Source of the DNA: Spirochaetota bacterium
Lineage (GTDB): Bacteria; Spirochaetota; JAHITG01
NCBI GenBank assembly: GCA_018817865.1
Contig: JAHITG010000292.1
Coordinates: 1-46,626, forward strand
DNA length: 46,626 nt
Direction: 5' to 3'
Shown: piece after piece, positions 13,102 to 34,690 of the stretch
Layout of the letters: each line of letters opens with the position of its first letter
How positions within the stretch are numbered: position 1 is the first letter of the stretch
Notes under the pieces: generated by a model
What the model was told of the DNA's origin: nothing
The model's input: only the letters and a program-made list of their open reading frames with translations
Database searches by the model: none
Position numbers and translations under genes: made by a program

Positions 13102-13118
13102 TATTTTTCAATACAATT

Positions 13119-13162: not shown

Positions 13163-13164
13163 GT

Positions 13165-13212
13165 TGTCTGTAAAATGTAAACATTCTTTATGTAGTTTAC
13201 ATTTTACAGACA
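13165..13212 (+). terminator. Hairpin 2 after subunit gene: 16-bp perfect stem (extendable to 18), 12-nt loop
   Basis: TCTGTAAAATGTAAAC (13167-13182) pairs with GTTTACATTTTACAGA (13195-13210). The 10-mer TCTGTAAAAT also occurs at 12351-12360, just upstream of the operon promoter. Confidence 0.5.
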
Positions 13213-13247
13213 GCGAATAGCAACATTTTTAAATCAGGGGAAAAATT

Positions 13248-14168: not shown

Positions 14169-14196
14169 ATAATTAAGTATTTGGAAGATGATTTAT

Positions 14197-15006
14197 ATGA
14201 AAAGATCATATCAAATAGGATTGTTGGGCGTTATCGTGCTCCTGTTGAATATTTCTTCTTCTTTTGCCCGGATCAAAGTTACGCCAGCTGTTCAGCAGAT
14301 GGTACTGACCGCAGGAGAGGAGAGAGAGGTTTTTTTTGAGATCATGAATTCGGGACAGCAGGACCTGAAGATCACAATTGAACCGGAGGATTGGGGACAG
14401 ACTCAGGATCTAAAAGATATTACATGGACTAGATGGCTGGATCTCGACACACGGGGATTTCAATTAAAAGCCGGAGAGAAAAAGAGGATCTCATGCAGGG
14501 TCCATTTACCATCGGATATTACCCGGGAAGTGAATGCCATGGTATATTTTTCTTGTGAACTTCCAAGAAAAAACATAAGATTGAAGACCCGTGTGGGTGT
14601 TTCTCTTTTTGCCGGAAGAAAGGGGAATGAAAAAAAGAATATTGAAATTGAAAGTATAAAGGTCAGTAAATCTTCCGGCCTGAATCCTGCCTGTTATTTT
14701 GATATTACCCTTAAAAACAACGGGAATACTCATATTATACCACAGGGATATTTAATTCTCTCCAAACCGGATAATACCAGGGTCGCCTATCTCCCTTTAA
14801 GCAACATGGAGCCGGTAATAGCTGATGAGAAGAAAGTGTACCGGATCACCTGTAAGGAGAGTACCTTTAACGGAAATTATAAAGGAAAGATGATCATTAC
14901 GTATAAGGGGTTTCCTGAAAGAGCGGAATTTAAAAAAGTAAAAGAATTTTCATTTTTTATCAGCAGAAAAGAGGAAAAAAGAGGAAAGGCTTATTTTAAG
15001 GAATGA
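14197..15006 (+). CDS. Secreted two-domain Ig/beta-sandwich-like protein, periplasmic chaperone-like in pattern (269 aa)
   Basis: The signal is MKRSYQIGLLGVIVLLLNISSSFA. RIKVTPAVQQMVLTAGEEREVFFEIMNSGQQDLKITIEPEDW resembles the first strands of PapD-type chaperones, and a second half (IESIKVSK...FDITLKNNGNTHIIPQGYL) looks like a second sandwich. This is a pattern-level inference only. Confidence 0.5.
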   Translation: MKRSYQIGLLGVIVLLLNISSSFARIKVTPAVQQMVLTAGEEREVFFEIMNSGQQDLKITIEPEDWGQTQDLKDITWTRWLDLDTRGFQLKAGEKKRISCRVHLPSDITREVNAMVYFSCELPRKNIRLKTRVGVSLFAGRKGNEKKNIEIESIKVSKSSGLNPACYFDITLKNNGNTHIIPQGYLILSKPDNTRVAYLPLSNMEPVIADEKKVYRITCKESTFNGNYKGKMIITYKGFPERAEFKKVKEFSFFISRKEEKRGKAYFKE

Positions 15007-15008
15007 TC

Positions 15009-16244: not shown

Positions 16245-16265
16245 GATCAAGGAGATGATGATGTT

Positions 16266-17573: not shown

Positions 17574-17623
17574 GGATCCTTTTAAACCGATAAATAATAT
17601 GAAAGAAAGTAAGGAAGATAATT

Positions 17624-20236: not shown

Positions 20237-20327
20237 ATTTTTTATTAAACTGCAGTAGCTGTTTCTTCTGTTCGGCTTCATTATTTGTGAAGGTGATTCC
20301 GTAAAGTGCCGAAAAGATTAATGTATC

Positions 20328-21983
20328 ATGAGAAGGATCTTATTCATTATAATAATTATTTTTTTAGCTTCAATTTCTTTATCTGCTGAGCTGTATACGG
20401 TCTGGACACAGCGTATAAATAGTCCGGGGTCCGAAGATGACAGCGGATACGGGATCGATGTGGATGATCTCGGTAATGCGTATGTGACCGGAAGAAAGCA
20501 TAACGGGCTGAATTTTGATTATTTTACGATAAAATATGACCCGGATGGAAATACGGTCTGGTCACAGGTTTATGATAACGGCCAGAGAGATGATGGCTAT
20601 TATGCCCGGATACGGTCATCCTATCTTTATATTACAGGGGCAAGTGATAATGGCGCTGATTTTGATTTTTGTACTGTGGTATATGACCTGAACGGGAACA
20701 GCACATTTACACAGAGGTTTAACAGTGGCGCGGCTGATTTCGGCCATGCTGTAACAGCGGATGATTCCGGTGCTATTTATGTAGCCGGTCCGAGTAATAA
20801 CTGGAACTATTTTTTAATTAAATATAACAGTGATGGAAGTACGAACTGGACCCGGTCCGGACCTGCAGGAAGGCCGTTCGGAATTGTATATGATAATACC
20901 GGATATGTATATGTGACAGGGTTCAGGGACGTCGGCCCTAATGTGGATTATTACACTGTGAAATACAGTACCAATGGAACAACAATATGGACACAGCAGT
21001 ATGACAGCCAGGCCGCTACTGATGATGCAGCGCATGATATTGTACTGGACAGCATTGGAAATGTTTATATAACAGGGTATAAGCTGAACAGTGATTTTTA
21101 TACTATAAAACTTGACTCTCTCGGGAATACGGTCTGGACTCAGGGATTTGACGGGGGAGGGATCGATTACGGCAGAGGCATTGATATCGGTCCGTTAGGA
21201 TATGTTTATGTCGGGGGATTCAAGCACAATGGTCTTAATTATGATTATTTTATTATAAAATATGATCAGAATGGCAATACGATCTGGACTCAAGGATATA
21301 ACGGCGGGAGTGATGACAGGATTGAAAGAATTGCGGTGGATAATAAAGGATTTGTTTATGCTACAGGATATAAAGATAATGGCGCGGATGATGATTTTTT
21401 TACTATTAAATATCTTCAGCCTCCTTATCCCACAGTACCCTCTTCTCTTTCTGCCTCTTTCATCTCGAAAAATGCTGCAACGATCAGCTGGCAGGATATG
21501 ACGATCAATGAAGAAGGATTCAAGATATACAGAAGCAGTGACAATCTTATCTTTAACCTGATAGGAACAGTTACAGCAGGCAGTACTTCTTTTCCTGATA
21601 ATACATTGGAAGAGGGATCATACTGGTACAGGATTGGAGCAACCAACAGGGCCGGCGAGATTACATCAATAACTTATAAATATACAGCCGGAGAGGCCTT
21701 TATCTCCACCACTCGTACAGGTGTTTATCCCAATTATTTTCAGATCGGACATGACCATGAAATAAAGATAGTCATAGCTGAGGCAGGATATGCCCGGATC
21801 AGGATATACAATATTGCAGATTCTCTTGTTAAGGATTATCCGGAACAATATTATCAGGCGGGAGCATATTCAGTATGGGATGGAAAAGGAGGAGTCGGAC
21901 AGGCTCTGGGCGCAGGTCTCTATTTTGTCGTGATAAAAGGGGAAAATGTAAATACCATATGTAAAGTGATCCTGAAAAGGTAG
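20328..21983 (+). CDS. SBBP-type beta-propeller repeat protein + FN3-like domain + T9SS-type CTD
   Basis: It has repeats such as DYFTIKYDPDGNTVWSQVYD, DYYTVKYSTNGTTIWTQQYD and DYFIIKYDQNGNTIWTQGYN. The FN3-like segment is ATISWQDMTINEEGFKIYRS. The CTD reads ARIRIYNIADSLVKDY...GAGLYFVVIKGENVNTICKVILKR. Confidence 0.8.
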   Translation: MRRILFIIIIIFLASISLSAELYTVWTQRINSPGSEDDSGYGIDVDDLGNAYVTGRKHNGLNFDYFTIKYDPDGNTVWSQVYDNGQRDDGYYARIRSSYLYITGASDNGADFDFCTVVYDLNGNSTFTQRFNSGAADFGHAVTADDSGAIYVAGPSNNWNYFLIKYNSDGSTNWTRSGPAGRPFGIVYDNTGYVYVTGFRDVGPNVDYYTVKYSTNGTTIWTQQYDSQAATDDAAHDIVLDSIGNVYITGYKLNSDFYTIKLDSLGNTVWTQGFDGGGIDYGRGIDIGPLGYVYVGGFKHNGLNYDYFIIKYDQNGNTIWTQGYNGGSDDRIERIAVDNKGFVYATGYKDNGADDDFFTIKYLQPPYPTVPSSLSASFISKNAATISWQDMTINEEGFKIYRSSDNLIFNLIGTVTAGSTSFPDNTLEEGSYWYRIGATNRAGEITSITYKYTAGEAFISTTRTGVYPNYFQIGHDHEIKIVIAEAGYARIRIYNIADSLVKDYPEQYYQAGAYSVWDGKGGVGQALGAGLYFVVIKGENVNTICKVILKR

Positions 21984-22089
21984 AATAATAAAAAAAAAGA
22001 GAAAGAAAAGTTGAAATATAATAATTTTGAGGTATATTATATATTAGAAAAAGATCAAATGACCTGATTTTTTAAACCGGGGGTGACAA

Positions 22090-22569
22090 ATGAAAGTTTT
22101 AAAAGGCATACTTTTGTGTCTGATCTTCCTTTTAACAGAGTTAACTATTACGGCTGTATATGCCAAGAAGGTAGCCGTACTTCAGTACTATAAGGGAGAT
22201 GTATTGATCGAGCGCCATGTTATGAAGGGGAAATGGATGAAACCGAGGCTGAATGTAAAACTGGATGATAAGGACCAGATAAAGCTGGTTAAAGGTGGAA
22301 TAGCGAAACTCAAATTCATAGACGGGTCCATTGTAGAAATTAAAGAGAGTAAAATCTATCAAGTCGGTGATGTTAAAAATCTGGCAACGAGTAAGCGGAC
22401 CAAAGGAAAATCCGTCCTTTCAAAATTGAAATCACTGAAGAGTAAGCTTGGAAAAGGCGGAGGAGCAGACAAAGGAGGCCCGACAGCTGTTGCCGGTGTC
22501 CGCGGTGCTGATGTCTCTGAGAAATCCAAATCACCGGTTAAACCTTCTGAATTAGTCTGGGAAGAGTGA
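22090..22569 (+). CDS. Small secreted FecR-domain-like protein
   Basis: It has a signal peptide. KGDVLIERHV...LVKGGIAKLKFIDGSIVEIKESKIYQVG and TAVAGVRGADV resemble FecR-type beta-sandwich proteins. The assignment is weak. Confidence 0.4.
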   Translation: MKVLKGILLCLIFLLTELTITAVYAKKVAVLQYYKGDVLIERHVMKGKWMKPRLNVKLDDKDQIKLVKGGIAKLKFIDGSIVEIKESKIYQVGDVKNLATSKRTKGKSVLSKLKSLKSKLGKGGGADKGGPTAVAGVRGADVSEKSKSPVKPSELVWEE

Positions 22570-22783
22570 TAGGGAGAGGCCCGCACTTTATTCGTACTTG
22601 CATTTTATATTAGACAGTATTGTATTCTTATAGTTCAATTTAAATTATTTAATATTTATATTGCTTGTTTATGATAAAAAAAAGCCATATATCTTCAAAA
22701 TATTTTATTAAATATTCTATCCGCTTTTTACGGCGATCATTTTTCCCATATTTTATTTTTAATTCAATTGTGTGAGGTCTATC

Positions 22784-25700
22784 ATGAAAAAGCTATTATT
22801 GATAATATTGATTTTATCTTTTCCGGTCGCAGATGCAAGTTCCGCAATTATCTATTCCAATAATTTTGAATCGGATGACGGGGGCCTGATACAGATCGAT
22901 TGTATCAATTACAGCTGGGAGTGGGGGATCCCCAAATATGTTGGTCCTTCCAATGTTCCTTCGGGACAGCGATGCTGGGGAACCATAATTGAAGGGAATT
23001 ACGGCAGTTCCACAACGAACAGGGAGTACCTGGTTCTGACTAATGTTGATCTGACTTCGGTCTCCTATGCAGGGCTGGAATTCTGGCATTACTATAAATT
23101 TGATGATATGATGACCGATGATGCGGGCCGGGTGGAAGTATCGACCAATAGCGGTACCACCTGGTCTAATCTGGGGGATTATCCCTACGAGTACTCTCAA
23201 AGTTGGGTCATGGCTTTTAATGGTCCCGGTTATGCGCGTAATGAGGGGACGAATTGGCAGCAGGCTGCATTTGACCTGACCTCGTATGCCGGACAGAATA
23301 TCTGGATTCGATTCCGTTTCGAATCTGATTCATGGAATAATAACCATCCCGGATGGTATATAGATGATCTTGTGATCAAAGATATTCCCGTACCGATCGC
23401 CGGTACAGGGACCTCATCCAACATGCCTGTCAGTGTCTATAATAACAGCAGTAACGCCATTACATTTTATTATAAAGCGGAAAAAGGTATCTATAGCGGA
23501 AAAGTTTCCCTCGAGATCCCGGCAGGCTGGTCTGCTCCTCAGGACAGTAATGGTGCTTTAGAGGGGTATGTTCAGATCCAGTCCGGAACCGGTTCACCTG
23601 TTATTGCGCTAGACCCTGATATTGTTTTACGAACTATCACGGTCCAGATAACGAACATGAAACCTGGAGATGACCTGCGGATCATTTACGGGGCAGGAGC
23701 TGTGGGAGCCGTGGCTCCGTCTTCATACGGGACCTATAGTTTTACCATGCAATCCGGTAATATACTGGAAGGCATGGTGGACCTTGATGAATCACCCTGG
23801 GTCGCTGTTCAGCCTTTGATCGTACCGCCTTATTTCGAAAATTTTGAATCCGGTGTTGGCGGGCTTTATGCCACGGGTGAGAAGGCTCAGTGGGAGTATG
23901 GTACTCCATCCGGTGTTGGCCCTTCATCAGCACACAGCGGCAGTTCCTGCTGGGCCACTAAAATCTCAAGCTATTATGATATTAATTTCTGGAATCCGGA
24001 AAACCTGTATCTGCCACCCATTGACCTGACAGGGATCACCACCAATGTCTATATCAGTTTTTGGCACTGGTTTGAATTCTATTATGACAGGAACATGGGG
24101 CATGATGGATCTGCTATCTTTGCATCCACAAATGGCGGTACGAATTACTTTATCCTGGAAGCTCATTTAGGTACCAGGTATAATGATACATCCGATATGA
24201 TGCCACCATTCGGAATGGGAGGGACCTCACCTTATTGCTGGTCTTTAAAGAATTCCGGTTGGGAGCAGGTCTATGTGGATTTGACATCATTTACTAATAA
24301 GGTGGTTAATCTCTATTTTGCCTTTAAAGCAGGAAATTGGCAGTTCCCCAATTTTGCCGGTTATTATCTGGATGATATTGAAGTGATCGCCTCTACTCCA
24401 CCCGTTGCAGGATCAGGCCAGGGTTCTATCCAGCCTGCTGCGACTTATATCTCCTCAACTAATTATTATAAATTGAAATATACATCCGATACAGTGATCT
24501 ATAATGGAACTGTAACCGTTGATATTCCGGGCGGATGGACACCTCCACAGATGGCAATTCCGGCCAATCCTGGATATGTGTATATTGTTTCGACCAATTC
24601 TGCTGTAAAAATCAATAAGATCCCGGGAGTTGGGGGGAATACTATAACAATAAATATTACCAATATGCCGGCAGGAATGGATTTTGATATATGCTACAGC
24701 AATGCAGTGGCTCAAAACACCACGGGTCCGGCGCAATTCATTACACGATCAATGAGGCAGGGTGAAGTATTGACGCCAATAAATAAAACTCCTGAGGTCA
24801 GGGTCATGAACTTAATTTCATCTTTCCCCTGGTTCAGGGATTTTGAAGGTAATGACGGCAATCTCTCTACAGTAGGGAATCTCACTCCTTTCTGGGAGTG
24901 GGGTGTGCCCGGAGTCGGCCCAACAGGAGCTTATTCCGGATCAAGGTGCTGGGGAACCCTGCTTAATAGTACTCTCGATCCTGATTATCAGAATTACAGC
25001 CTGTATACCCCATTCTTCAATTTCAGTAATATTACAAATGCCATCATTGATTTTCAGTATTTTGCTGATCTTCAGGGATCCGGTTCTTTTGGTGCCCATT
25101 TTATGATCTCTACTAATAAGGGACAGACCTTTGAAGTCTTTGGTAAATATCCGACTGACTATGATGAGCAGTGGTTTTATTCTCCACCCCCCTATACTAA
25201 AAGTTATCCCGGGTGGGCTGATTCCACAACAGCATGGGAGCAGAAGATAATAGATCTTTCTTCCTTGTCCGGGAAGATCTTGCAGATGAGATTCAGGTTT
25301 GTAAATAGAGGGTGGGAACCGAACCATGCGGGATTTTATATTGATGATCTGTATGTAAAGAGAGATCGGCCGCCTATTGCCGGATCAGGAACAGCAACGG
25401 TTAATCCCAGTGTAACAGCTCCCAGTACCTCTGCTGATTATGCCTTTTTATATTTATCTGAAAAGAATTTTTATGATGGAAGTGTGACCTTTGAAATACC
25501 AAATAACTGGACAGCTCCTCAGAAGATATTTCCGGCTAATCCGGGATATATTAAGATCATATCCGTCTTATCCAATGCAAAAGTGAATTATGATCTGAAT
25601 ATTATCGGGGCAGGGCCTTGGATCGTAACGGTAACAGTGACCAATATCCCTGCAGAGGGCGGGTTCACTCTGGCCTACAGCAATGCTGTTTCACCGGCGC

Positions 25701-28700
25701 TGATCGGTGAATCAGTCTTTTCAGTACGATCTGCTCTGGATACGGAACCCCTGACAGAGATCAACAGCTCTCCTGTTATTGTTAATCTGAATACGATCTC
25801 GATACCTTTTACTCATACCTTTGACAGTGATAATGGAGGGTGGGTAGAAGCAGGAAGCACGCATGAACTCTGGGATTGGGGTATCCCTTCCTGGGGTCCT
25901 TCCTCGGCCCATTCCGGATCCAGGCTTTGGGGTACTGTACTGGATGATAATGTTAATGTACCGGGAGTATTGGACAAACTGACCTCTCCTATTATTGATC
26001 TGACCTCTGCTACCCAGGCCCATTTTGCCTTTTATCACTGGTATGATATGAGTGATATGGCTATGAGTGATATGGCCGGAAATGTGATGGTCTCTACCAA
26101 TTTTACTGACTTTGCGGTTCTAGGCAGTTATCCCAAGAACTATCCCAATTCCTGGGTCTTCAGCTGGTCCGGCCCGAAGAACGGTCAGGACGGATATTCC
26201 GGCATGGACTGGGAAAATCAGAAGAGATGGGAGAAACGCACTTTTAATTTATTGCCTTATGTAGGGAACAAGATTATTCTACGGTTTGACTTCGGATCAC
26301 GCCCTGCTGCCCCTCAACTGAATTCTCCCGGATGGTATATTGATGACGTCTCCGTACAGCCCACACCGCCTCCGATCGCCGGTACGGGAACAGCTACCAT
26401 TTATCCGGAATCAGCTATTGTGAATACGACCAATAATTATACGATCACCTATACGGCAAAAGAAGATATTTTTATCGGATCGATCGAGATCGACTTCCCG
26501 CACGACTGGTCTTTGATCCAGACCAATAATAGCAGCGGGCGAGGGTATGTATTTTTAGATACATTCAGCACGTTCACTTATAATCTGACTATAGCGAACA
26601 GTAATCGTCTGATCATAAATGTTCAGAACCTTGATTATAATGAGTCCTTCCAGATCAGATATAAAAAGGCAGTTACTCCGGCAGTAGCGGGAACCTATGT
26701 TTTTACCAATAAATCACAGGGATTCAGTGAGCCTATTACACCGATCGATAATTCACCTTCAGTGATCTGCCAGGAGATCCAGACCCTCCCTTATAAGGAG
26801 GAATTTGAATCCGGAAATGGCGGCTATATCTCAGAAGGGAACGATAAGCTGTTCGAATGGGGTACTCCGGCCAATGTAGGTCCGTCAGAGGCTCATTCCG
26901 GTATTAAATGCTGGGGAACAAAGATCAATCAGTTTTATAATGAAGATAACAGTTGGGAATATATGGTATCGCCTCCTTTTGATGTTACGGCTGAAACTCA
27001 GATATACTTCTCGTTTCATCATTATTTTGATTCGGAAGCGGATCCCATGAAAATGTTTCCCTGGGGAAGCGGTGACGGGGTAACTCTTGAGATCGCCAGT
27101 GCTGATACGCTGGCCGGCCTTACCACAGCCTCTTTTGAACAGGTTGGCAGTTATCCTCAGGTGTATAACCAGTACCTGGATAACCGGCAGTTCTGGGGAG
27201 GATTCAGCGGAGGATGGGTACGCCAGGAGATGAACCTTTCGCAGTATGGCGGAAAATATATTAAATTCAGGTTTTATTTCCACAGTGACTGGGACTATGC
27301 CAGCCTGCCGGGGTGGTATGTTGATGATATAAAGATAGATAATGTAACACCAAAGACACCGGATGTTCCTTTTGAAGATTCCGGTACTCACATCGGGCGG
27401 AATAATTCGTATGGAGTATCCTTTCTTGATTTTGATAATGACGGCGATTTTGATCTTATTGAGAACAACTACAAGCAGACCTATAATATCATATGGCGCA
27501 ATAACGGCAGCGGTTCTTTGTCAGAGTACAAGAGTATCGGTAAGAACAGCACCCGTGTAATACGATTTGCCGATTTTAATAATGACGGATTTTATGATGC
27601 TTTTGCCGGGAACTGCAAAGGGGAAATAGGAGAGTTGTCGGAACAGCCGAATGAGATCTTTATGAATGCCGGCGGGAAAGAGTTTGTTCTTAAACAATCT
27701 ATTGGAAATGATATAACCCGGGATGTGGCCTTATGTGATGTTGATAATGACGGTGATGTGGATATCTTTGTAGCCAACATAGGAGCAAATTCCCTTTATC
27801 TGAATGACGGGACCGGGAATTTTCAGGAGAGTGAAAATATCCTGACCGGAGGGAATACAACCGCTGCTTTATTTGCCGATTTTAATAATGATGCCTACAT
27901 GGACCTGGTCATCGGGAACAATGGAGGAGAAGCGAACCGGTTACTGATGAATAACGGGAGCGGCGGGTTTTCCGATTCCGGCCAGTCCATGGGCAAGTAT
28001 GAAACGACTTCCCTTGATGTCGGGGATATTGACCTGGATGGAGATCTGGATATCGTCTTCGGTACCAGGACCCTTATAAAGATATGGACGAATAATGGAT
28101 CTGCAGGTTTCGGATCTGCCGGAAGTTCACGGTTCCAGGCACGGAGTATAGATTTTGTTACTAATGACACAAAAGATATGAAGCTTGCTGATGTAGATAA
28201 TGACGGTGACCTTGATATCCTTTGTGCTAATGAATATGATACGGATATGGTCTGGCTTAATAACGGGTTCGGGACATTCAAGGACAGCGGGAATTATCTC
28301 GGGAGTTATGCATCCAAACGAATGTCTGTAGCAGATTTTAACAGGGACGGCCTTCTGGATTTTGCCGTTGGAAACAGCTTTGACCAGCCGGATATCATAT
28401 GGTTGAATAAGATGACCAACAACAACATCAACCGGGCGCCCTCACCGCCAAAAGTCCTTGAAGTGGAATTCAGCGGTAATGAGGCTATCATTACCTGGAG
28501 TTCGGGAACGGATTCCGAGACTCCTATCAGTCATCTGACCTATAACCTGAATATCGGTACCAGTCCTAATGGTAATGATATCCTCTCTGTTCCGGTGAAA
28601 AAGGACAGCTATTATTTCAACGGACCGGGGAATGTCAGAATGGCTAAAGTCTCGGGGGGAAACCGCATCTGGAGGATCAAGAACCTGACCAAGATCTCTT

Positions 28701-29092
28701 ATTACTACTTCAGTGTCCAGACGATTGATGAGGGATTTATGGGTTCAACATGGCTGACAGCTTCGTATTATCATGATCCCAAAGCTCCCGGAGTGGATGA
28801 TTTCAAGACTTCTGATAATTTTCTGAATCTGGATGACGGACAGGAGTGTATTATAACGTATAACCTCGGGCAGGCTTCTAAAGTAACCATCGAGATCGTG
28901 AATCTTGAAGGGACCATTGTGAAGACCCTGCTGAAAGATGTTCAGAAACCGGCCGGGTATCATCCGTATACTCATAAAGAGACATGGAAGGGTATCAATG
29001 AAGCAGGGACAAAGATAGCTCCCGGGATCTATTGGGTCTTTGTAAAGACCGATCACTGGGTTAAAAAGAAACGTGTTTTGATCGTATGGTAG
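22784..29092 (+). CDS. Giant (2102 aa) T9SS cargo/adhesin: 5 x [MAM/choice-of-anchor-J-like sandwich + Ig-like module] + 7-blade FG-GAP/VCBS propeller + FN3 + CTD
   Basis: The ATG at 22784 (MKKLLLIILILSFPVADA) is preferred over the GTG at 22772. A motif set recurs five times: FE(S/G)xxGG...WEWG(I/T)P..GPS.AHSG..CWGT...GWYIDD(L/V), each followed by P(I/V)AG(T/S)G...P.GW(S/T).PQ. The seven DxDxDG-type blades are FDNDGDFD, FNNDGFYD, VDNDGDVD, FNNDAYMD, IDLDGDLD, VDNDGDLD and FNRDGLLD. The CTD reads KVTIEIVNLEGTIVKTLL...PGIYWVFVKT...RVLIVW. Confidence 0.8.
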   Translation: MKKLLLIILILSFPVADASSAIIYSNNFESDDGGLIQIDCINYSWEWGIPKYVGPSNVPSGQRCWGTIIEGNYGSSTTNREYLVLTNVDLTSVSYAGLEFWHYYKFDDMMTDDAGRVEVSTNSGTTWSNLGDYPYEYSQSWVMAFNGPGYARNEGTNWQQAAFDLTSYAGQNIWIRFRFESDSWNNNHPGWYIDDLVIKDIPVPIAGTGTSSNMPVSVYNNSSNAITFYYKAEKGIYSGKVSLEIPAGWSAPQDSNGALEGYVQIQSGTGSPVIALDPDIVLRTITVQITNMKPGDDLRIIYGAGAVGAVAPSSYGTYSFTMQSGNILEGMVDLDESPWVAVQPLIVPPYFENFESGVGGLYATGEKAQWEYGTPSGVGPSSAHSGSSCWATKISSYYDINFWNPENLYLPPIDLTGITTNVYISFWHWFEFYYDRNMGHDGSAIFASTNGGTNYFILEAHLGTRYNDTSDMMPPFGMGGTSPYCWSLKNSGWEQVYVDLTSFTNKVVNLYFAFKAGNWQFPNFAGYYLDDIEVIASTPPVAGSGQGSIQPAATYISSTNYYKLKYTSDTVIYNGTVTVDIPGGWTPPQMAIPANPGYVYIVSTNSAVKINKIPGVGGNTITINITNMPAGMDFDICYSNAVAQNTTGPAQFITRSMRQGEVLTPINKTPEVRVMNLISSFPWFRDFEGNDGNLSTVGNLTPFWEWGVPGVGPTGAYSGSRCWGTLLNSTLDPDYQNYSLYTPFFNFSNITNAIIDFQYFADLQGSGSFGAHFMISTNKGQTFEVFGKYPTDYDEQWFYSPPPYTKSYPGWADSTTAWEQKIIDLSSLSGKILQMRFRFVNRGWEPNHAGFYIDDLYVKRDRPPIAGSGTATVNPSVTAPSTSADYAFLYLSEKNFYDGSVTFEIPNNWTAPQKIFPANPGYIKIISVLSNAKVNYDLNIIGAGPWIVTVTVTNIPAEGGFTLAYSNAVSPALIGESVFSVRSALDTEPLTEINSSPVIVNLNTISIPFTHTFDSDNGGWVEAGSTHELWDWGIPSWGPSSAHSGSRLWGTVLDDNVNVPGVLDKLTSPIIDLTSATQAHFAFYHWYDMSDMAMSDMAGNVMVSTNFTDFAVLGSYPKNYPNSWVFSWSGPKNGQDGYSGMDWENQKRWEKRTFNLLPYVGNKIILRFDFGSRPAAPQLNSPGWYIDDVSVQPTPPPIAGTGTATIYPESAIVNTTNNYTITYTAKEDIFIGSIEIDFPHDWSLIQTNNSSGRGYVFLDTFSTFTYNLTIANSNRLIINVQNLDYNESFQIRYKKAVTPAVAGTYVFTNKSQGFSEPITPIDNSPSVICQEIQTLPYKEEFESGNGGYISEGNDKLFEWGTPANVGPSEAHSGIKCWGTKINQFYNEDNSWEYMVSPPFDVTAETQIYFSFHHYFDSEADPMKMFPWGSGDGVTLEIASADTLAGLTTASFEQVGSYPQVYNQYLDNRQFWGGFSGGWVRQEMNLSQYGGKYIKFRFYFHSDWDYASLPGWYVDDIKIDNVTPKTPDVPFEDSGTHIGRNNSYGVSFLDFDNDGDFDLIENNYKQTYNIIWRNNGSGSLSEYKSIGKNSTRVIRFADFNNDGFYDAFAGNCKGEIGELSEQPNEIFMNAGGKEFVLKQSIGNDITRDVALCDVDNDGDVDIFVANIGANSLYLNDGTGNFQESENILTGGNTTAALFADFNNDAYMDLVIGNNGGEANRLLMNNGSGGFSDSGQSMGKYETTSLDVGDIDLDGDLDIVFGTRTLIKIWTNNGSAGFGSAGSSRFQARSIDFVTNDTKDMKLADVDNDGDLDILCANEYDTDMVWLNNGFGTFKDSGNYLGSYASKRMSVADFNRDGLLDFAVGNSFDQPDIIWLNKMTNNNINRAPSPPKVLEVEFSGNEAIITWSSGTDSETPISHLTYNLNIGTSPNGNDILSVPVKKDSYYFNGPGNVRMAKVSGGNRIWRIKNLTKISYYYFSVQTIDEGFMGSTWLTASYYHDPKAPGVDDFKTSDNFLNLDDGQECIITYNLGQASKVTIEIVNLEGTIVKTLLKDVQKPAGYHPYTHKETWKGINEAGTKIAPGIYWVFVKTDHWVKKKRVLIVW
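26048..26077 (+). repeat. 15-bp tandem duplication inside the giant gene (ATGAGTGATATGGCT / ATGAGTGATATGGCC)
   Basis: The two units are adjacent and match at 14/15 positions. They are in frame and encode MSDMA-MSDMA in module 4. Confidence 0.9.
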
Positions 29093-29108
29093 AGGAGGAT
29101 CAGGAATT

Positions 29109-31481
29109 ATGAAAGGTTTATGGAGAGCATTATATTTTCTGATAATACTTATATTTTATTCAGGTCTGGCTGCACAGGATTATTCGACTTCTGTAGGCAG
29201 GTTTCTCCTGCTTTCGGGAGGAGCCAGGGCCGGTGCAATGGGCGGAGCCTACTCTGCCGTGGCAGAAGATGCCTCTACCATAAACTGGAATCCGGGCGGC
29301 CTGGCCTTTATTAAGGGATATGAGATATCCTTTATGCATATGATGTATGATGAAGATATATTATATGAAAATGCTTCCGCTACGCTGCCTCTGGATTTCG
29401 GAACATTTGGACTGAATTTTATTTACATGGGAATGTCACCTCTGGCTGAAATGGCAAATGGGGACCTGACCGGTAAGGAGCTGGATTATTCTGATATGGC
29501 TATCTCTCTCTCCTTTGGAAGGGAGTTCTTTAATATGGTCGGGATCGGTGCCAATGTAAAATATATAAAAAGCTCAATGGGAATTTCTGACACGGCAGAT
29601 TATTTTACGGGACAGGGCATAGCCTTTGATATCGGCCTTCTTTCAAGGTTCGATCTGTTCAGATTCTATAATAAAATCGAAAAGAACCTGCGCGTGGGGA
29701 TTTCTCTTCAGAATATCGGGACCGGCCTTAAATACATTACATCAACCCATTCCTTTCCTACGGTCATTAAACCGGGCCTTTTTTATAAACCGATCAAGTA
29801 TGCAGAAGTGGTCTTTGATTATAATATCATCAGTGATTCTCCCAATACCATCAATATCGGGCTGGAAGCCCTTCCGGAATGGATCCTGTCCCCACGTGCC
29901 GGTATTAAGATAAAAGATTCCATCAAGACGTTTACATTGGGAGGAGGCTTAAAATACGGATTTGGAAGCTTCTTTTTTCAGCTGGATTATGCCTATAATA
30001 CGGATGATTATTTTAAAAATCATATGATCAGTATAGCGATCAGAAAATTCACGGCATCTTTAGCGGAATTCGGTTTCGGGAATATCATTATAAAAGATGT
30101 TTTCCCGGCCATGTATAAGTATTATACAAAGAACTCGGTATCGGATGTGGAAGTGAAGAATGATACTAATATTCCTATTGAAAAGATAAAGGTCTCCATG
30201 CTTGTAAATAAGTATATGGATTTTCCTTCCGAAAGCAAGGAGGTTGAGCGGTTACCCTCCGGTGATACTATTGTTGTAAAGCTTCCTGCTGAATTTAACA
30301 ATGAAATTCTAAATATATCCGAAGATACCCCCATGCAGGCGCAGATTAAGATAGATTATGTGGCTGAGGGAAAACGGCATCAGATCTCTCAGACAAAATC
30401 ATTTAAACTCTTTAACCGGTATGCCATGACTTGGGATAATTTTGATAAATTGGCAGCATTTGTTACACCAAAGGACCCGCCTGTAAAAGTTTTTGCCCGG
30501 GGCATGGTCCAGCAGTACAGCACCATAAGGATCAAGGACCTTCCCCGTTCTATTGTACAGGCCTCCGTTATTTTCAATGCTTTAGGAGCTGTAGGTATCA
30601 CTTATGTCCTTGATCCGCAGAGCCCCTACAGGCAGAGGCAAAAGGCAACCGAGATCATAGATCAGATCCAGTATCCGCGGGATACCTTGCGGTATAAAAC
30701 AGGGGATTGTGATGACTGCTCCGCCCTTTACTGTGCTTTGCTGGAGAATATAGGACTGAACACGGCATTTATTGATATTCAGGATCACATCTTTATGATG
30801 TTTGATACCCAGGTACCGGAGGAAAATGCTTTGGAGGAGTTCGGTAAGAGGGACCTCTATGTTATTAAAGATGGTACCGCGTGGCTTCCCATAGAGACGA
30901 CAATGTTCAAAAAGGGATTTTCAGATGCCTGGATCACGGCAGCGAATGAGTATCTTGAAGCTTCGGAAAAAGGCATTGTTACGATCGTTGATGTTAAAAA
31001 AGCCTGGGAGACATTCTATCCCGTAACATTACCTGATATTCAGTGGGAACCGCCTTTCCCTTCAAAAAGCAGCATGGAGCTTTTTCTAAATAAAGACAGG
31101 AGGAGATTCGGCAGTCTGGGGGTAAAAGGATTGATCAATGAATTACGGATACAGCTTGCCAGAAATCCGCGTGATGTGGACATATTGAACAGGCTGGCCG
31201 TAACGTACGGCAGGATCGGCAAGGTAAAGATCTCTCAGAGGTATCTGGAAATGATATTGGAGCAGAAGCCCAATAAAGCAAAATATTTTAATAACCTGGC
31301 CAATACCTATTTTCTCGATAATAAATTAAATGAAGCGCTTATTTACTATAAACAGGCGATCAAACTTGAACCGGATAACCCGAACTACAGGATCAATATC
31401 TCTAACCTGTACAGCGTCATGGGGGAGAAGGACAGGGCTGAAGAAGAGATGAAGAAGGCTGAAAAACTTCTTGAAGAATAG
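29109..31481 (+). CDS. Fusion protein: PorV/PorQ-family barrel + middle beta-rich region + transglutaminase-like Cys-protease core + C-terminal TPR repeats (790 aa)
   Basis: The RBS is GAGGAGGA, and the gene starts 16 nt after the giant cargo gene. The barrel signature is GARAGAMGGAYSAVAEDASTINWNPGGLAFI. The TGase-like core is GDCDDCSALYCALLENIGLNTAFIDIQDHIFMMFD...GTAWLPIETT (Cys, His, acidic residue). The TPR segment is AKYFNNLANTYFLDNKLNEALIYYKQAIKLEPDNPNY. Confidence 0.75.
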   Translation: MKGLWRALYFLIILIFYSGLAAQDYSTSVGRFLLLSGGARAGAMGGAYSAVAEDASTINWNPGGLAFIKGYEISFMHMMYDEDILYENASATLPLDFGTFGLNFIYMGMSPLAEMANGDLTGKELDYSDMAISLSFGREFFNMVGIGANVKYIKSSMGISDTADYFTGQGIAFDIGLLSRFDLFRFYNKIEKNLRVGISLQNIGTGLKYITSTHSFPTVIKPGLFYKPIKYAEVVFDYNIISDSPNTINIGLEALPEWILSPRAGIKIKDSIKTFTLGGGLKYGFGSFFFQLDYAYNTDDYFKNHMISIAIRKFTASLAEFGFGNIIIKDVFPAMYKYYTKNSVSDVEVKNDTNIPIEKIKVSMLVNKYMDFPSESKEVERLPSGDTIVVKLPAEFNNEILNISEDTPMQAQIKIDYVAEGKRHQISQTKSFKLFNRYAMTWDNFDKLAAFVTPKDPPVKVFARGMVQQYSTIRIKDLPRSIVQASVIFNALGAVGITYVLDPQSPYRQRQKATEIIDQIQYPRDTLRYKTGDCDDCSALYCALLENIGLNTAFIDIQDHIFMMFDTQVPEENALEEFGKRDLYVIKDGTAWLPIETTMFKKGFSDAWITAANEYLEASEKGIVTIVDVKKAWETFYPVTLPDIQWEPPFPSKSSMELFLNKDRRRFGSLGVKGLINELRIQLARNPRDVDILNRLAVTYGRIGKVKISQRYLEMILEQKPNKAKYFNNLANTYFLDNKLNEALIYYKQAIKLEPDNPNYRINISNLYSVMGEKDRAEEEMKKAEKLLEE

Positions 31482-31545: not shown

Positions 31546-31724
31546 TCAGGATATCGCTAAATTAAAAGTAATGTAGTAAGGGGCTTGTGCGGAGCCTCCC
31601 CGAAGGGGGTAGCCCCGCTTGAAATAAGCTATTTTCACTCCATAGACGGGCCTACTTGTGCCCGCAGGGTAAAGGCATTTGATGCATTTTTTGTCAAATA
31701 AATATTAATTTAGCGACAACCTGA
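31546..31724. repeat. 179-bp element bounded by 20-bp inverted repeats (18/20) with GC-rich internal hairpins; candidate sRNA, MITE or invertible switch
   Basis: TCAGGATATCGCTAAATTAA (31546-31565) pairs with TTAATTTAGCGACAACCTGA (31705-31724). Inside are a hairpin GGGGCT...AGCCCC (31580-31616) with an inner CCCC-GAA-GGGG, a second hairpin GGGC...GCCC (~31648-31663), and GCATTTGATGC followed by TTTTTT (31675-31692). Confidence 0.6.
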
Positions 31725-31863: not shown

Positions 31864-32772
31864 ATGTTCAGAAGATGGATGTTTCAAAAAGACGGCCAGA
31901 CCCTGGGTCTTGTAGCCCTCATTATTCTGCTTTTAGGTGTGATCGCTTTTTTTATCTATAACATAGGTGATTTTTATATAAAAGCGGTAAAGGAACAGAG
32001 TGCCGTGGATGCGGCCATGATCTCCGGTGCTTCGGTACAGGCGGATTATTTGAACATGATCGTACGAAATAATAGAAATACTATACGAGATTATTATATA
32101 CTTATCTGGGCCTGCCGGATATGCGAATTGATTTGTATTCCGGTATTTCCATGCTGCGGGAGGATCTGTTATGTTACTACTCCCCTTATGCATATTATAG
32201 AAAAAAGGTTTATGCTTAAACAGATGACATTGGCGCAAATGGCAGGTATCAAAGCGAGGAGCGAGGCATTAAGTGCTTATAGGAGATCGGGCGGTAAAGG
32301 GAATTTGGAAATATTGCTTTCCTCCGACCCGTATCCTTCAGGGGATGACAGGATGCTTTTCCCCAACACATTGAGACTCAGTATGATCTATTCAAAGATG
32401 CCCAAGACCAGGTTTAGTCAAAATAAAAAGACTTTCTGCGGTTTAGGGGAGAAAAAGAGGAACTCTATGTATGACTGGAAGGGAATGATAAGCTGGATGA
32501 GGGTCCAGGGGAATTACCAGGGTTTTTATGATAAAGCCGGGCCTTTTATCAAGACGATCCCGGAAAGTACTCATTTTAAATTTAAACCCGTATCAAGCTG
32601 GTTTTCTAAAACTCAGAAGATCAGTGTACATTCAGCTGCCCGGCCCTACGGCGGGCATGTTCATGATAAATATTCGTATGGCTTAGGCTGGCCCATCCTG
32701 GTTGGCGGCGGTGAAGATACATTTACGGCAAAATTGGTTCCAACAAAATCATTGTTATACAGGTGGTGGTAA
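31864..32772 (+). CDS. TadG-like pilus (pseudopilin) protein with Cys-rich insert
   Basis: The RBS is AAGGAG. The N-terminus KDGQTLGLVALIILLLGVIAFFIYNIGDFYIKAVKEQSAVDAAMISGAS fits the Tad/TadG N-terminal pattern (G-x4-hydrophobic helix...Q.A.DAA.L.GA). It contains the cluster CRICELICIPVFPCCGRIC. Confidence 0.6.
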   Translation: MFRRWMFQKDGQTLGLVALIILLLGVIAFFIYNIGDFYIKAVKEQSAVDAAMISGASVQADYLNMIVRNNRNTIRDYYILIWACRICELICIPVFPCCGRICYVTTPLMHIIEKRFMLKQMTLAQMAGIKARSEALSAYRRSGGKGNLEILLSSDPYPSGDDRMLFPNTLRLSMIYSKMPKTRFSQNKKTFCGLGEKKRNSMYDWKGMISWMRVQGNYQGFYDKAGPFIKTIPESTHFKFKPVSSWFSKTQKISVHSAARPYGGHVHDKYSYGLGWPILVGGGEDTFTAKLVPTKSLLYRWW

Positions 32773-32773
32773 G

Positions 32774-33211
32774 ATGAAACTATCATTTAAAAAATTCATT
32801 GATTTCATCAAGGAGAAGAAAGGCCAGGCATTTACAGAGCTGATCATACTTATCACCCTGATCTTTATGACCGCGATCGTTGCTACGATCCATTTAGGGC
32901 TTTTCCAGTTGAGCCGGACAAGGATACAGATGGCTAATTTCTATCTGGGCCATACATCAGCAACCGCAAAAAATCCCGGGGATGTAGGAACAAAGACAAA
33001 AGTAATGCTTAAAAAAGGGGCTCCTTCTGTTGTTGAAGACAGTACATGGTTTGAATCAGTTACTCCCACAGTATCCGGCGGTGACGCAAAGACAGCACAG
33101 ATCAAAACGGAGTTCCGATTAAATTCATCTATCATGCAAAAAGTTGTTGGAAGTGACATTATGCCTTTGAACTCATATAAACTCTATATAAAAGGACCCA
33201 AGTATAAATGA
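32774..33211 (+). CDS. TadE-like pseudopilin (145 aa)
   Basis: The ATG at 32774 lies 1 nt after the upstream stop, so I reject the track start at 32702. The N-terminus is MKLSFKKFIDFIKEKKGQAFTELIILITLIFMTAIVATI (G-x3-E + hydrophobic helix). Confidence 0.5.
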   Translation: MKLSFKKFIDFIKEKKGQAFTELIILITLIFMTAIVATIHLGLFQLSRTRIQMANFYLGHTSATAKNPGDVGTKTKVMLKKGAPSVVEDSTWFESVTPTVSGGDAKTAQIKTEFRLNSSIMQKVVGSDIMPLNSYKLYIKGPKYK

Positions 33212-33996
33212 TTAAATTAAATAAGATAAAGACATTATGCGTTTTGTTTTTATTGATCGTCTGCATTTTTATGCATCAGAACATATCTGGACAATTAAAT
33301 GACGCCCTTCAGGAAGTTCTCTTCTATAAAGGGGATATTGTTGTTGATAATGTGGATCAATGGGAATCCAATAATATCCATTTTACTATGGTTGGCTATT
33401 TCCTGAAAAAGGAGAGGGAGATCACTGTTAAAAAGATACAGGAGTATTATAAGCATTCTTTTAAGAGATTTGGTTACAAAGTTTACAGAAAGAAGGATCA
33501 GAAACTGGCCGAGGGAATGCTTCAGGAAATGTATTTAATGAATGATAAACACATTTTTGGTATTACTATCTATGATCTAAAGGATATTGAAGACTACTAT
33601 ATAACCTTACAGGTATCTGAAAAGGATGTCATGCGTAATCCCGGGATGTTCTTATTAAATAAGAAAAAAGATAATCCCGGATTTGATTATAAGGATATTC
33701 CCCGTTTTAAGAACAGTATTAGGTTCATGTCCTCCCGGTCAATATCCGAGGTTGGAAAAACAGAGCAGCAGATCATTTATCATACACTATCTGAAATTGA
33801 GGGTATTACGGATTTTTATAAAGATATTATGATCAAAGAAGACTGGAAAATGAAGCAGTCCTTTGAGACTCCCGAGTGTAATATGCTTCATTATAAAAAA
33901 AGTAAAAATAATGAGGTAACATGTGATATTTTTATCATGAAGAGTAAGGACATGAAAGAGAATGCAATTATTATAAACAGGAGTTCATATGATTAA
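33208..33996 (+). CDS. Secreted/anchored hypothetical protein embedded in the Tad pilin set (262 aa)
   Basis: It overlaps the upstream gene by 4 nt (ATGA). It has an N-terminal hydrophobic helix (LCVLFLLIVCIFM) and no motif I recognise. Confidence 0.5.
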   Translation: MIKLNKIKTLCVLFLLIVCIFMHQNISGQLNDALQEVLFYKGDIVVDNVDQWESNNIHFTMVGYFLKKEREITVKKIQEYYKHSFKRFGYKVYRKKDQKLAEGMLQEMYLMNDKHIFGITIYDLKDIEDYYITLQVSEKDVMRNPGMFLLNKKKDNPGFDYKDIPRFKNSIRFMSSRSISEVGKTEQQIIYHTLSEIEGITDFYKDIMIKEDWKMKQSFETPECNMLHYKKSKNNEVTCDIFIMKSKDMKENAIIINRSSYD

Positions 33997-34168
33997 GCTT
34001 TTAAAAAAGATCAATGGACAGGCCCTTGTAGAATATGCTCTGCTGAGTGTTTTTATTACCCTTGCTGTACTCGGTGTTTACATGGCTGCAGCAGCTGCCT
34101 ATAAGAATGTTCTGAATGAAATTATTGAAGGAATTGAAAAAGCACATTATCTTGAGATGTTCATGTAG
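33989..34168 (+). CDS. flp: Flp-family type IVb pilin (59 aa), missing from the ORF track
   Basis: My own translation gives MIKLLKKINGQALVEYALLSVFITLAVLGVYMAAAAAYKNVLNEIIEGIEKAHYLEMFM. It carries the Flp motif G/QALVEY followed by a hydrophobic helix. AGGAG lies at 33979-33983. The start overlaps the upstream stop within ATGATTAA, and the TAG stop is at 34166-34168. Confidence 0.8.
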   Translation: MIKLLKKINGQALVEYALLSVFITLAVLGVYMAAAAAYKNVLNEIIEGIEKAHYLEMFM

Positions 34169-34177
34169 GAGAAGGTC

Positions 34178-34690
34178 TTGAAAATACGGCAGTTTATTAA
34201 ACAAACCGATGGCCAGTCATTAAGTGAAACTTTAGTGGCTTTACTGGTGGTCATCTATATTGTTCTTGGACTATTTCAGTTTTCCCTGTTCATTACCGGG
34301 TTCCTTTCAACGAATTATGCGGCGTTCAGGGCGGGCCGGGCTGTTCTGGTCTCTTATAATAATGAAAGAAGCTACGGTCAGTCTGCCGGTTCAGCCCTCA
34401 TGGATGCAAGAAAGGTGGTGGGTAATTTATATCTCTTTTCCTCTATTGCCGGATCAATGCCATATCAGGTTAAGTTATACAAGTTTGACAGCAGCGATGA
34501 TTCATATCTGGGGGATCCATACCAGTCCAGTGAATCCCTCCCTGCTGATAGCGATGTCTGGGTAGAAGTGACCGGTAGAATGCGGTATGTCATGCCTTAT
34601 GCCAGAAAAATATTCGGACTTTTCGGCTGGAAGACCATTAAAGCCTATTATCTGATCCATACACCCAATCCCGGCCGGAATAACCCATAG
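34178..34690 (+). CDS. TadE-like pseudopilin (170 aa, TTG start)
   Basis: The RBS is TAGGAGAAGG. The N-terminus TDGQSLSETLVALLVVIYIVLGLFQFSLF...NYAAFRAGRAV matches the TadE pattern (G-x3-E-hydrophobic ... aAR.GAR). Confidence 0.6.
   Translation: MKIRQFIKQTDGQSLSETLVALLVVIYIVLGLFQFSLFITGFLSTNYAAFRAGRAVLVSYNNERSYGQSAGSALMDARKVVGNLYLFSSIAGSMPYQVKLYKFDSSDDSYLGDPYQSSESLPADSDVWVEVTGRMRYVMPYARKIFGLFGWKTIKAYYLIHTPNPGRNNP

Follow-up and report, generated by a model that had tools for sequence, protein, structure and literature searches.

A probable Flp-type prepilin-like gene within a TadG/F/E-like cassette of an uncultivated Spirochaetes-labelled bacterium

Many Tad loci have several flp paralogues, and the function of the TadE/F/G-type proteins is still only partly understood. 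The Flp pilins themselves are short (about 50–80 aa) and fully alpha-helical (PMC12075869), carry the motif GXXXXEY (PMC10934763) and conserve Glu5 and Tyr6 (PMC10710030). In the Kil (Tad-like) pilus of Myxococcus xanthus, KilO and KilK are Flp minor 'adapter' pilins (Herrou et al., Nat Commun 2025, PMC12075869). KilO is a 59-aa protein encoded inside the tip3 cluster, and genetic work in Myxococcus showed that KilK/KilO are required to prime the polymerisation of KilP (PMC12075869).

The window analysed here is the whole stretch of a 46.6-kb contig, which is the complete record. It includes five tightly packed genes, in the order TadG-like, TadF-like, secreted 262-aa protein, Flp-like and TadE-like (Table 1), that are probably co-translated. 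The fourth of these, gene 4, is almost certainly a genuine protein-coding gene, and its product is very likely an Flp-type (type IVc/Tad) prepilin-like protein. Taken as a whole, the locus is best explained by a genuine Flp-type gene that is embedded in a cassette and whose product acts most likely as a minor or adapter pilin, an explanation that we favour with some reserve.

Table 1. Cassette genes and the gene 4 ribosome-binding site in the 46.6-kb window
Feature	Length	Coordinates	Strand	Basis or remark
Gene 1, TadG-like large minor pilin	302 aa	31864..32772	+	N-terminus KDG↓QTLGL and hydrophobic helix, without Glu5
Gene 2, TadF-like pseudopilin	145 aa	32774..33211	+	N-terminus KKG↓QAFTE and hydrophobic helix; internal ATG 32774
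Gene 3, conserved protein with Sec-type signal peptide	262 aa	33208..33996	+	Directly precedes the small pilin gene in every case
Shine-Dalgarno-like AGGAG		33979..33983	+	Read from sequence; 5 nt (ttcat) 5' of ATG 33989
Gene 4, Flp-type prepilin-like gene	59 aa	33989..34168	+	Translation, coding score, orthologues
Gene 5, TadE-like pseudopilin	170 aa	34178..34690	+	TTG start; N-terminus TDG↓QSLSE and hydrophobic helix

Gene 4 is read from its ATG to a TAG at 34166-34168, and its start overlaps the stop codon of gene 3 (TAA 33994-33996) within the 8 nt ATGATTAA (33989-33996). The reading frame with its exact translation, the AGGAG and the overlap had all been proposed in the first-pass annotation, and each was recovered from the sequence. 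The gene had also been described there as hidden. This is true of the ORF track, whose default cut-off of 60 aa misses a 59-aa product, but not of the public record, where three independent gene callers (NCBI, ENA and Logan) predict it and the identical NCBI protein is entered as 'MAG: hypothetical protein KKH98_08985 [Spirochaetes bacterium]'. The predicted leader, MIKLLKKING (33989-34018), is 10 aa long and basic, and the predicted mature peptide of 49 aa, with a calculated mass of 5,436 Da, begins QALVEYALLSVFITLAVLGVY (34019-34165). The N-terminus thus has the published Flp layout (MIKLLKKING↓QALVEYALLSVFITLAVLGVY, the arrow marking the predicted cleavage point): the leader ends in Gly, G↓QALVEY fits GXXXXEY with both Glu5 and Tyr6 in place, and a hydrophobic stretch follows.

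The other cassette genes were compared with those of related loci; each of the five cassette genes in the window has a homologue in both L003 and L009. Gene 1 scored a sub-threshold 17.8 bits on Pfam Tad (PF13400), and its orthologue in L009 scored 24.1 against a cut-off of 22.3. Similarly, gene 5 scored 13.8 bits on Pfam TadE, and its L003 orthologue (35% identical) scored 27.1 against a cut-off of 22.9. The initial description of the neighbours as TadE/TadG-like is therefore borne out by orthologues that pass Pfam. Gene 1 is 37–45% identical to five other clusters (P0010 37%, P0007 45%), with blastp identities of 43% to L003 and 39% to both L007 and L009. It has an invariant Cys cluster, and its invariant residues include C84, C87, C91, C97, C98, C102 and C192. 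An AF2 model of gene 1, built from the six-sequence alignment, had low confidence (pLDDT 49), too low for its fold to be compared. The ATG of gene 2 lies 1 nt after the stop codon of gene 1. Gene 2 returned no family match; the motif scan found a class-III-type motif with Glu5, the length of 145 aa is also that of the ENA and Logan gene calls, and the L003 and L009 orthologues are 42% and 30% identical, respectively.

The ATG of gene 3 overlaps the stop codon of gene 2 (ATGA). Its product matched nothing in Pfam or NCBIfam, and its one precomputed match, to AF_1845, is faint. The L003, L007 and L009 orthologues are 27–28% identical to it. A gene of 247–254 aa occupies the same position in L012 and L014/15, where it was equated with gene 3 by position alone; the L012 gene carries the same faint AF_1845 match. 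When a genome-contig collection (without the source MAG) was scanned with the 262-aa protein, no match was returned. For gene 5, the Logan caller uses TTG 34178 and the ENA caller begins 57 nt later. As the orthologues conserve the class-III N-terminus, the TTG start is needed. The cassette region, scanned for promoters and terminators, was no richer in them than shuffled sequence. Rfam searches (gathering thresholds over the whole window, and E-value mode over the upstream intergenic region) and tRNA scans gave nothing real. A GC-rich hairpin upstream of the cassette (31580-31616), unique in the window, was rejected because it folds no better than shuffles (z = -0.56).

No TadA/CpaF ATPase, TadB/C platform, secretin, RcpC or A24 prepilin peptidase was found in the 46.6-kb contig, nor any further Flp-motif ORF. 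Parts of the Tad machinery were found beside the cassette in relatives. Upstream of it lie two T2SSF genes in L003 and, in L009, two T2SSF genes together with RcpC, a CpaC-type secretin and a canonical Flp gene; in L015 it is followed downstream by RcpC and a Flp_Fap gene. An ATPase or A24 prepilin peptidase was seen in none of the related loci fetched. The canonical Flp of L009, whose gene leads the machinery operon, scored 27.3 bits on Flp_Fap (E 3e-6). It is 51% identical to the canonical Flp of L015, and the two are 17–37% identical to the cassette type. Both genes carry consensus AAGGAGGT ribosome-binding sites. The gene 4 sub-family is itself rare and divergent. A search of 1.84 billion representatives recovered three members (the gene 4 protein and two others). 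With the neighbouring TadG-like gene as anchor, six lineages were reached in all; in every case the gene is embedded in a TadG/F/E-like cassette.

As two relatives, L009 and L015, have a separate canonical Flp beside the machinery genes, a minor or adapter role is the most likely for gene 4, and on balance we prefer it to that of a major pilin. Gene 4 is then probably a second, cassette-embedded Flp paralogue and not necessarily a fibre-forming pilin. In the reading originally offered, the fibre of a Tad pilus is formed by the 59-aa protein as major Flp pilin, the TadG/F/E-like neighbours are its pseudopilins, and the genes for the machinery lie in another part of the genome. As no other Flp-type gene is present in the available sequence, this could be so in the organism at hand; gene 4 also has all of the Flp hallmarks (size, leader, GxxxxEY and an all-helical model) and a good AGGAG ribosome-binding site, and with several flp paralogues so common in Tad loci a co-occurring flp is no proof of a minor role. 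We nevertheless consider a major pilin unlikely. In the two relatives whose machinery genes can be seen along with one end of the locus, there is a distinct Flp that is more canonical and has a stronger ribosome-binding site. The cassette-type gene is packed between minor-pilin genes, without a promoter or terminator of its own, and its sub-family is always found within such a cassette. KilO also offers a direct precedent, being an Flp minor pilin of 59 aa whose gene lies in a tip cluster (PMC12075869). The statement that the neighbours make no sense without this gene was too strong, given the separate canonical Flp found by RcpC, secretin, TadB or TadC genes in L009 and L015.

If gene 4 does encode a minor or adapter pilin, the 59-aa protein would insert in the inner membrane via its hydrophobic helix. 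An aspartic prepilin peptidase of the TadV/CpaA type, with its gene at another place in the genome, would remove the basic 10-residue leader after Gly10, leaving a 49-residue all-helical peptide that starts QALVEY and presents Glu5 and Tyr6. A Tad machine, also encoded elsewhere, would assemble this peptide, which would serve as a low-abundance 'adapter' between a fibre of a different major Flp and a tip or priming complex of the TadE/F/G type. As the contig is without a TadV/CpaA peptidase and other Tad machinery, we infer the cleavage after Gly10; assembly into a pilus, the minor or adapter role and the presence of a Tad machine in this genome are proposed in the same way.

The assignment to the Flp type, made initially from the letters alone, was upheld by the motif, the hydrophobic helix, the all-helical 59-aa product and homology to Flp units. 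The AF2 model is a single helix (residues 2-58, mean pLDDT 79). A strict G-x4-E-[YF] followed by a hydrophobic stretch (at least 14 hydrophobic residues in the next 16, in ORFs of at least 40 aa) occurs once near an ORF start in the window; the mean in 200 dinucleotide-preserving shuffles was 0.015, with one occurrence in 3/200. The motif [G/A][Q/E]A[L/M]xEY is kept in all six lineages, and the residue at -1 in the L009 orthologue is Ala, not Gly. The Flp_Fap (PF04964) HMM search that had been suggested as a check was non-significant (12.3 bits, E 0.15), well under the gathering threshold of 32.2 bits. Among the six sub-family members, three matched this family weakly (best E 0.051) and 0/6 reached the threshold, yet it was the sole Pfam family matched by more than one of them. 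NCBIfam returned nothing for gene 4, and no meaningful match for any cassette protein.

More sensitive comparisons linked gene 4 to Flp units. An exhaustive phmmer search of the 1.84 billion representatives returned only three relatives. One, P0003 (E 3.2e-5 library-wide), is a tandem of two Flp units that scores 68.5 bits on Flp_Fap. Aligned by hhalign with these two units, the sub-family gave 96.5% (E 7e-10), and 98.6% (E 8e-16) after the L009 and L015 Flp genes were added to the Flp-unit profile, the L009 gene itself lying below the Flp_Fap cut-off. When the 59-aa protein and a three-sequence profile were used in word-indexed protein searches, only the query and its two known relatives came back. 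A PDB sequence search with the sub-family profile found no solved Tad pilin, only chance matches (bestrophin and a designed TPR), and Foldseek returned zero matches in PDB to the single-helix model.

A small single-pass membrane protein that has nothing to do with pili, such as a holin-like or membrane-anchor peptide in which GxxxxEY is coincidental, is a very improbable source of this pattern. A short hydrophobic helix with a charged tail matches many membrane families marginally, and gene 4 did match Pfam Holin_BlyA (PF05102) at 15.1 bits (E 0.023), but this is under the 27-bit gathering threshold and was seen in 1/6 orthologues, and a BlyA-type holin was rejected. Against it, the motif is conserved across six lineages and there is profile-profile homology to Flp units; in addition, three neighbouring genes have the same class-III-type N-terminus, and the relatives are physically linked to RcpC, secretin and TadB/C genes.

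That gene 4 is a real gene is indicated by its conservation. A homologous ORF of 54–62 aa, 30–47% identical, is found at the same position in L003, L007, L009, L012 and L014/15, and A12, E15 and Y16 are invariant in the alignment of the six orthologues. The synteny check proposed at the outset gave a clear result: the ORF is retained, and the + frame open, in all six of the independent loci that cover the position. pN was less than pS in 15/15 pairs, and dN/dS was 0.16–0.71 in the 10 pairs with unsaturated dS. Two further loci, L001 and L002, carry an identical protein; as their DNA is 100% identical to the window, they add no independent weight. Contigs that encode identical orthologues differ within the small gene at two third codon positions only, which is consistent with selection although two differences are too few to count. 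L010 and L011 are short fragments, and in L010 the TadE-like gene directly precedes the TadG-like gene, so that it is uninformative on the small ORF. A chance ORF, or a real gene in the 67-aa antisense ORF (34001-34204) that is listed together with gene 4 once the minimum is set to 40 aa, is hardly credible and, judged from sequence conservation, effectively refuted: although the + frame is short and the antisense strand is open across almost the same span in the window, the codon-usage log-likelihood is +22.7 bits for gene 4 against +0.8 bits for the antisense ORF, all antisense frames are interrupted in L003 and L007 (1-5 stops each), synonymous change prevails in every pair, and the antisense ORF, dismissed as meaningless from the start, had no match in a family search.

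The gene had thus already been called publicly, though as a 'hypothetical protein', and picking it out was correct but fairly ordinary. Pipelines left it 'hypothetical' because its score is far under the Flp_Fap cut-off, and short pilin genes are in general easily lost to ORF-length cut-offs and profile thresholds. Once gene 4 is named, five unannotated genes become a coherent Tad minor-pilin cassette. An FG-GAP/TPR protein of about 685 aa is encoded beside the cassette in four related loci (L003, L009, L012 and L016). It is conceivable, though doubtful, that the cassette forms a self-contained 'tip module', not described before, for the Tad-like pili of uncultivated bacteria labelled Spirochaetes, with the small Flp as a dedicated adapter and the 260-aa protein as a new tip or chaperone component. 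As no TadA-type ATPase or A24 peptidase was seen in the loci fetched, such a system might even run without locus-encoded copies of either. Otherwise, the result is a better annotation and not a new biological principle.

Set beside the Flp/Fap pilins (Aggregatibacter Flp1, Caulobacter PilA; PF04964), gene 4 is alike in its size within the 50-80 aa range, its short basic leader, Gly at -1, Glu5-Tyr6, a hydrophobic stretch of approximately 20 residues, an all-helical model and TadE/TadG-like neighbours, and it is remotely homologous to them, as detected via phmmer and hhalign. It differs in its sub-threshold Pfam score and in having Ala at mature positions 2 and 7, where Caulobacter PilA has Thr2 and Gly7. 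The EYALL of gene 4 is, however, shared by P0003, which is Pfam-positive. The sub-family also has its own conserved C-terminal signature, AYKNxhxKIh, and co-exists in relatives with a more canonical Flp, and gene 4 is embedded among pseudopilin genes rather than leading an operon. With the TadE/TadF pseudopilins (PF07811), gene 4 shares the class-III-type N-terminus (G↓xxxxE and a hydrophobic helix) and presumably the peptidase that processes it. However, those proteins are about 150-200 aa, have a C-terminal globular domain and carry the published motif GXXXXEF, whereas gene 4 encodes 59 aa, without a globular domain and with EY. Membership of PF07811 was rejected for gene 4, which is all helix and has no TadE match; that role is filled by genes 2 and 5.

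The closest analogue of gene 4, compared by size, helix and gene context, appears to be KilO of the Myxococcus tip3 cluster. The cassette in the window differs from the Kil system in having the extra conserved 262-aa secreted protein, and nothing links it to predation, so that function is suggested by analogy only. KilO is a fully helical protein of 59 aa with a leader and cleavage motif, and the gene 4 product is of the same length, with its helix and cleavage site predicted. KilO is encoded within a TadE/F/G-like (KilL/M/N) tip cluster, away from the machinery and the major pilin gene; the window cassette likewise stands apart from any machinery, and in L009 and L015, from which canonical Flps are known, the Flp-like gene lies inside a TadE/F/G-like cluster apart from the candidate major pilin gene. 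After Myxococcus, gene 4 may provide the second case of an Flp minor pilin that serves as an 'adapter' between a TadE/F/G tip and the fibre.

Translation of the + strand from ATG 33989 to TAG 34166–34168 gives a 59 aa product, MIKLLKKINGQALVEYALLSVFITLAVLGVYMAAAAAYKNVLNEIIEGIEKAHYLEMFM. An AGGAG precedes the ATG by 5 nt, and the start overlaps the stop of the upstream gene (TAA 33994–33996) by 8 nt, ATGATTAA. A 40 aa ORF listing shows this ORF together with an antisense ORF of 67 aa; it was missed at the ORF lister's default cut-off of 60 aa. The first-pass annotation matches the sequence in all these details. It had called the gene hidden, which it is not: an identical protein is in NCBI ('MAG: hypothetical protein KKH98_08985 [Spirochaetes bacterium]') and the gene is also called in ENA and Logan assemblies, so it is unnamed rather than hidden. 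As the ENA and Logan contigs share 100% DNA identity with the window, their calls add no independent evidence.

When the 59 aa protein was used in an exhaustive phmmer search of 1.84 billion representatives, only three relatives were returned: P0002 (59 aa, 45% identity), P0004 (55 aa, 47% identity) and P0003 (138 aa). Further loci were obtained by fetching their contigs and then searching with the well-conserved TadG-like neighbour as anchor. Retention in relatives, on which the first-pass annotation had made its reading depend, was borne out, with an ORF of 54–62 aa at the same position in six independent loci, the window and five others (L003, L007, L009, L012 and L014/15). The six share 30–47% identity, with A12, E15 and Y16 invariant. 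pN was below pS in 15/15 pairs, and dN/dS was 0.16–0.71 in the 10 pairs with unsaturated dS. Under a codon-usage model trained on the long ORFs of the window, the + frame scored +22.7 bits and the antisense ORF +0.8 bits. On this evidence the + strand ORF is a genuine gene, and purifying selection acts on it. The antisense ORF, whose frames all contain stops in L003 and L007, is an accident of the window sequence.

The first-pass annotation read the product as an Flp pilin. On its face, the Pfam check went against this: Flp_Fap (PF04964) reached 12.3 bits (E 0.15) where the gathering score is 32.2, NCBIfam gave no match, and none of the six sub-family members reached the Pfam threshold. Flp_Fap was nevertheless the sole family to match more than one member (3/6). 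P0003, matched by phmmer at a library-wide E of 3.2e-5, comprises two textbook Flp units in tandem (Flp_Fap 68.5 bits) and has EYALL in common with the 59 aa protein. In hhalign, the sub-family profile matched these units (96.5%, E 7e-10) and a four-sequence canonical profile (98.6%, E 8e-16, 52 columns) with G-Q...E-Y in register. Flp leaders are cleaved at GXXXXEY (PMC10934763), Glu5 is conserved among bacterial type IV pilins and Tyr6 among Tad pilins (PMC10710030), and Flp proteins are fully helical and 50–80 aa long (PMC12075869). The 59 aa protein agrees with this published definition in motif, Glu5/Tyr6, size and helicity, and its AF2 model is a single helix (residues 2–58, pLDDT 79). 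A G-x4-E-[YF] with a hydrophobic stretch near an ORF start is expected 0.015 times per window (3 of 200 dinucleotide shuffles had one), and a chance origin is unlikely. Caulobacter PilA has Thr2 and Gly7, whereas the 59 aa protein has Ala at both, and a conserved C-terminal signature, AYKNxhxKIh, is peculiar to the sub-family. The 59 aa protein is a rare new representative of the Flp-type pilin-like proteins; the Flp-type reading stands, though probably not as major pilin. Cleavage as predicted would leave a mature peptide of 49 aa (5,436 Da, pI 4.6). In some relatives Ala, not Gly, precedes the predicted cleavage site (KA/EALVEY, KA/QAVTE, KA/QALLE), which suggests that the cognate peptidase of the clade tolerates Ala at −1.

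Coordinates of features in the window and in related loci (slash, predicted cleavage site)
Feature	Contig	Position	Strand	Remarks
Gene 1, TadG-like, 302 aa	window	31864–32772	+	KDG/QTLGL
Gene 2, TadF-like, 145 aa	window	32774–33211	+	KKG/QAFTE
Gene 3, 262 aa	window	33208–33996	+	Sec signal peptide, no known family
AGGAG of gene 4	window	33979–33983	+	
Gene 4, Flp-like, 59 aa	window	33989–34168	+	
Gene 5, TadE-like, 170 aa	window	34178–34690	+	TTG start; TDG/QSLSE
Antisense ORF, 67 aa	window	34001–34204	−	rejected
Large surface-protein locus	window	12538–31481	+	
FG-GAP/MAM protein, 2106 aa	window	within 12538–31481	+	
GH113 protein	window	within 12538–31481	+	
Three proteins, C-terminal FlgD_ig/Por_Secre_tail-like domains	window	15003–16244, 20328–21983, 22772–29092	+	
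PorV/UPF0164-like outer-membrane protein	window	16266–17573	+	
TPR/transglutaminase-like protein, 790 aa	window	29109–31481	+	N-terminus PorV/UPF0164-like
GC-rich hairpin	window	31580–31616	+	
PilZ-domain protein	window	3196–3804	−	c-di-GMP-binding
Ala at −1	L009	12159–12323		
Ala at −1	L003	6320–6757, 7697–8290		
Ala at −1	L016	4949–5383		
Canonical Flp	L009	722–910		
Canonical Flp	L015	6414–6593		
DUF2085 membrane protein	L009	4557–5036		
TadG-like, 249 aa and 55 aa genes	L007	1–2271		

The small gene is fourth in a tight five-gene run, whose junctions are, in order, a 1 nt gap, 4 and 8 nt overlaps and a 9 nt gap. In the window, the TadG-like and TadE-like proteins gave sub-threshold Pfam scores (17.8 and 13.8 bits); the L003 TadE orthologue passes (27.1 vs 22.9 bits), as does the L009 orthologue for Tad PF13400 (24.1 vs 22.3 bits). 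All five genes are homologous to those in L009 and L003, with 43, 42, 27, 45 and 35% identity to the latter in gene order. The N-terminal motif pattern recurs at every locus, with E-Y restricted to the small protein. The TTG start of the TadE-like gene is required for its class-III N-terminus, which orthologues keep; in the ENA call, which begins 57 nt further downstream (151 aa), it is lost. No Pfam or NCBIfam family matched the 262 aa protein, for which there is only a faint precomputed AF_1845 match. In 6/6 loci the small pilin gene is directly preceded by a gene of matching size (27–28% identity in the three orthologues compared), whose product is a candidate for a hitherto undescribed component or chaperone of the cassette. 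Seven cysteines of the TadG-like protein (C84, C87, C91, C97, C98, C102 and C192) are invariant in six homologues (37–47% identity), a cluster that suggests disulfides or metal binding; its AF2 model (pLDDT 49) is not interpretable. Cassette composition varies: L007 lacks the TadF-like gene, the 249 and 55 aa (Flp-like) genes come straight after the TadG-like one, and the gene after them is unlike TadE.

No TadA/CpaF, T2SSF, secretin, RcpC or A24 peptidase was found in the window, which is the whole contig (46,626 bp). In relatives the cassette is linked to Tad genes: two T2SSF genes (TadB/C) lie upstream of it in L003, the L009 order is Flp, a 510 aa gene, RcpC, CpaC-type secretin, DUF2085, two T2SSF, OmpA, an outer-membrane protein and the cassette, and in L015 the cassette is followed by RcpC and a Flp_Fap gene. 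The DUF2085 gene of L009, between secretin and TadB, occupies the usual place of TadZ/TadA. No T2SSE-type ATPase or A24 prepilin peptidase was seen in the Tad-linked loci (window, L003, L009, L012, L014/15 and L016). In the window the cassette is surrounded by genes for large surface proteins and for PorV-like proteins of the outer membrane, and an FG-GAP/TPR protein of ~685 aa is a recurrent neighbour in L003, L009, L012 and L016. The PilZ-domain gene is ~30 kb from the cassette. The hairpin (GGGGCT...CCCCGAAGGGGG...AGCCCC), in an AT-rich 382 bp intergenic region upstream of the cassette, has no folding advantage over shuffles (z = −0.56), drew no Rfam match and is single copy in the window.

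A second, more canonical Flp gene accompanies the cassette in both L009 (Flp_Fap 27.3 bits, E 3e-6) and L015 (precomputed PF04964 match). These two share 51% identity with one another, against only 17–37% with the cassette-type proteins. Both are preceded by consensus AAGGAGGT ribosome-binding sites, and the L009 gene stands at the head of the machinery operon, whereas its cassette-type counterpart is wedged among TadG/F/E-like genes without its own signals. The evidence leans towards a minor pilin. The 59 aa protein may instead be the major pilin, as no other Flp-type ORF is present on the contig and the genome extends beyond it; given the canonical paralogues, their ribosome-binding consensus and a Myxococcus precedent, we consider this less likely.

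In Myxococcus xanthus, KilL/M/N (TadE/F/G-like) 'tip' genes form four clusters separate from the machinery, and one of these, tip3, includes KilO, a 59 aa Flp protein; KilK and KilO, both poorly expressed, act as 'adapter' minor pilins and are needed to prime polymerization of the major pilin KilP (PMC12075869). By analogy, we somewhat favour a KilO-like minor or adapter role for the 59 aa protein. A TadV-type peptidase, itself unseen, would cut off its leader behind Gly10, and the mature form would be incorporated into the pilus, where it could act as an adapter. A further reading, in which the cassette would form a tip module complete in itself, with a 260 aa protein as new component and no ATPase or peptidase encoded at the locus, seems improbable. 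Tad pili are found in most bacterial phyla, usually encoded at one locus, and scattered loci are reported to be very rare (PMC6668835); against this background, a minor-pilin cassette standing alone is somewhat unusual. It has a precedent in Myxococcus, where the Kil arrangement closely matches a small Flp within a TadG/F/E-like cassette.
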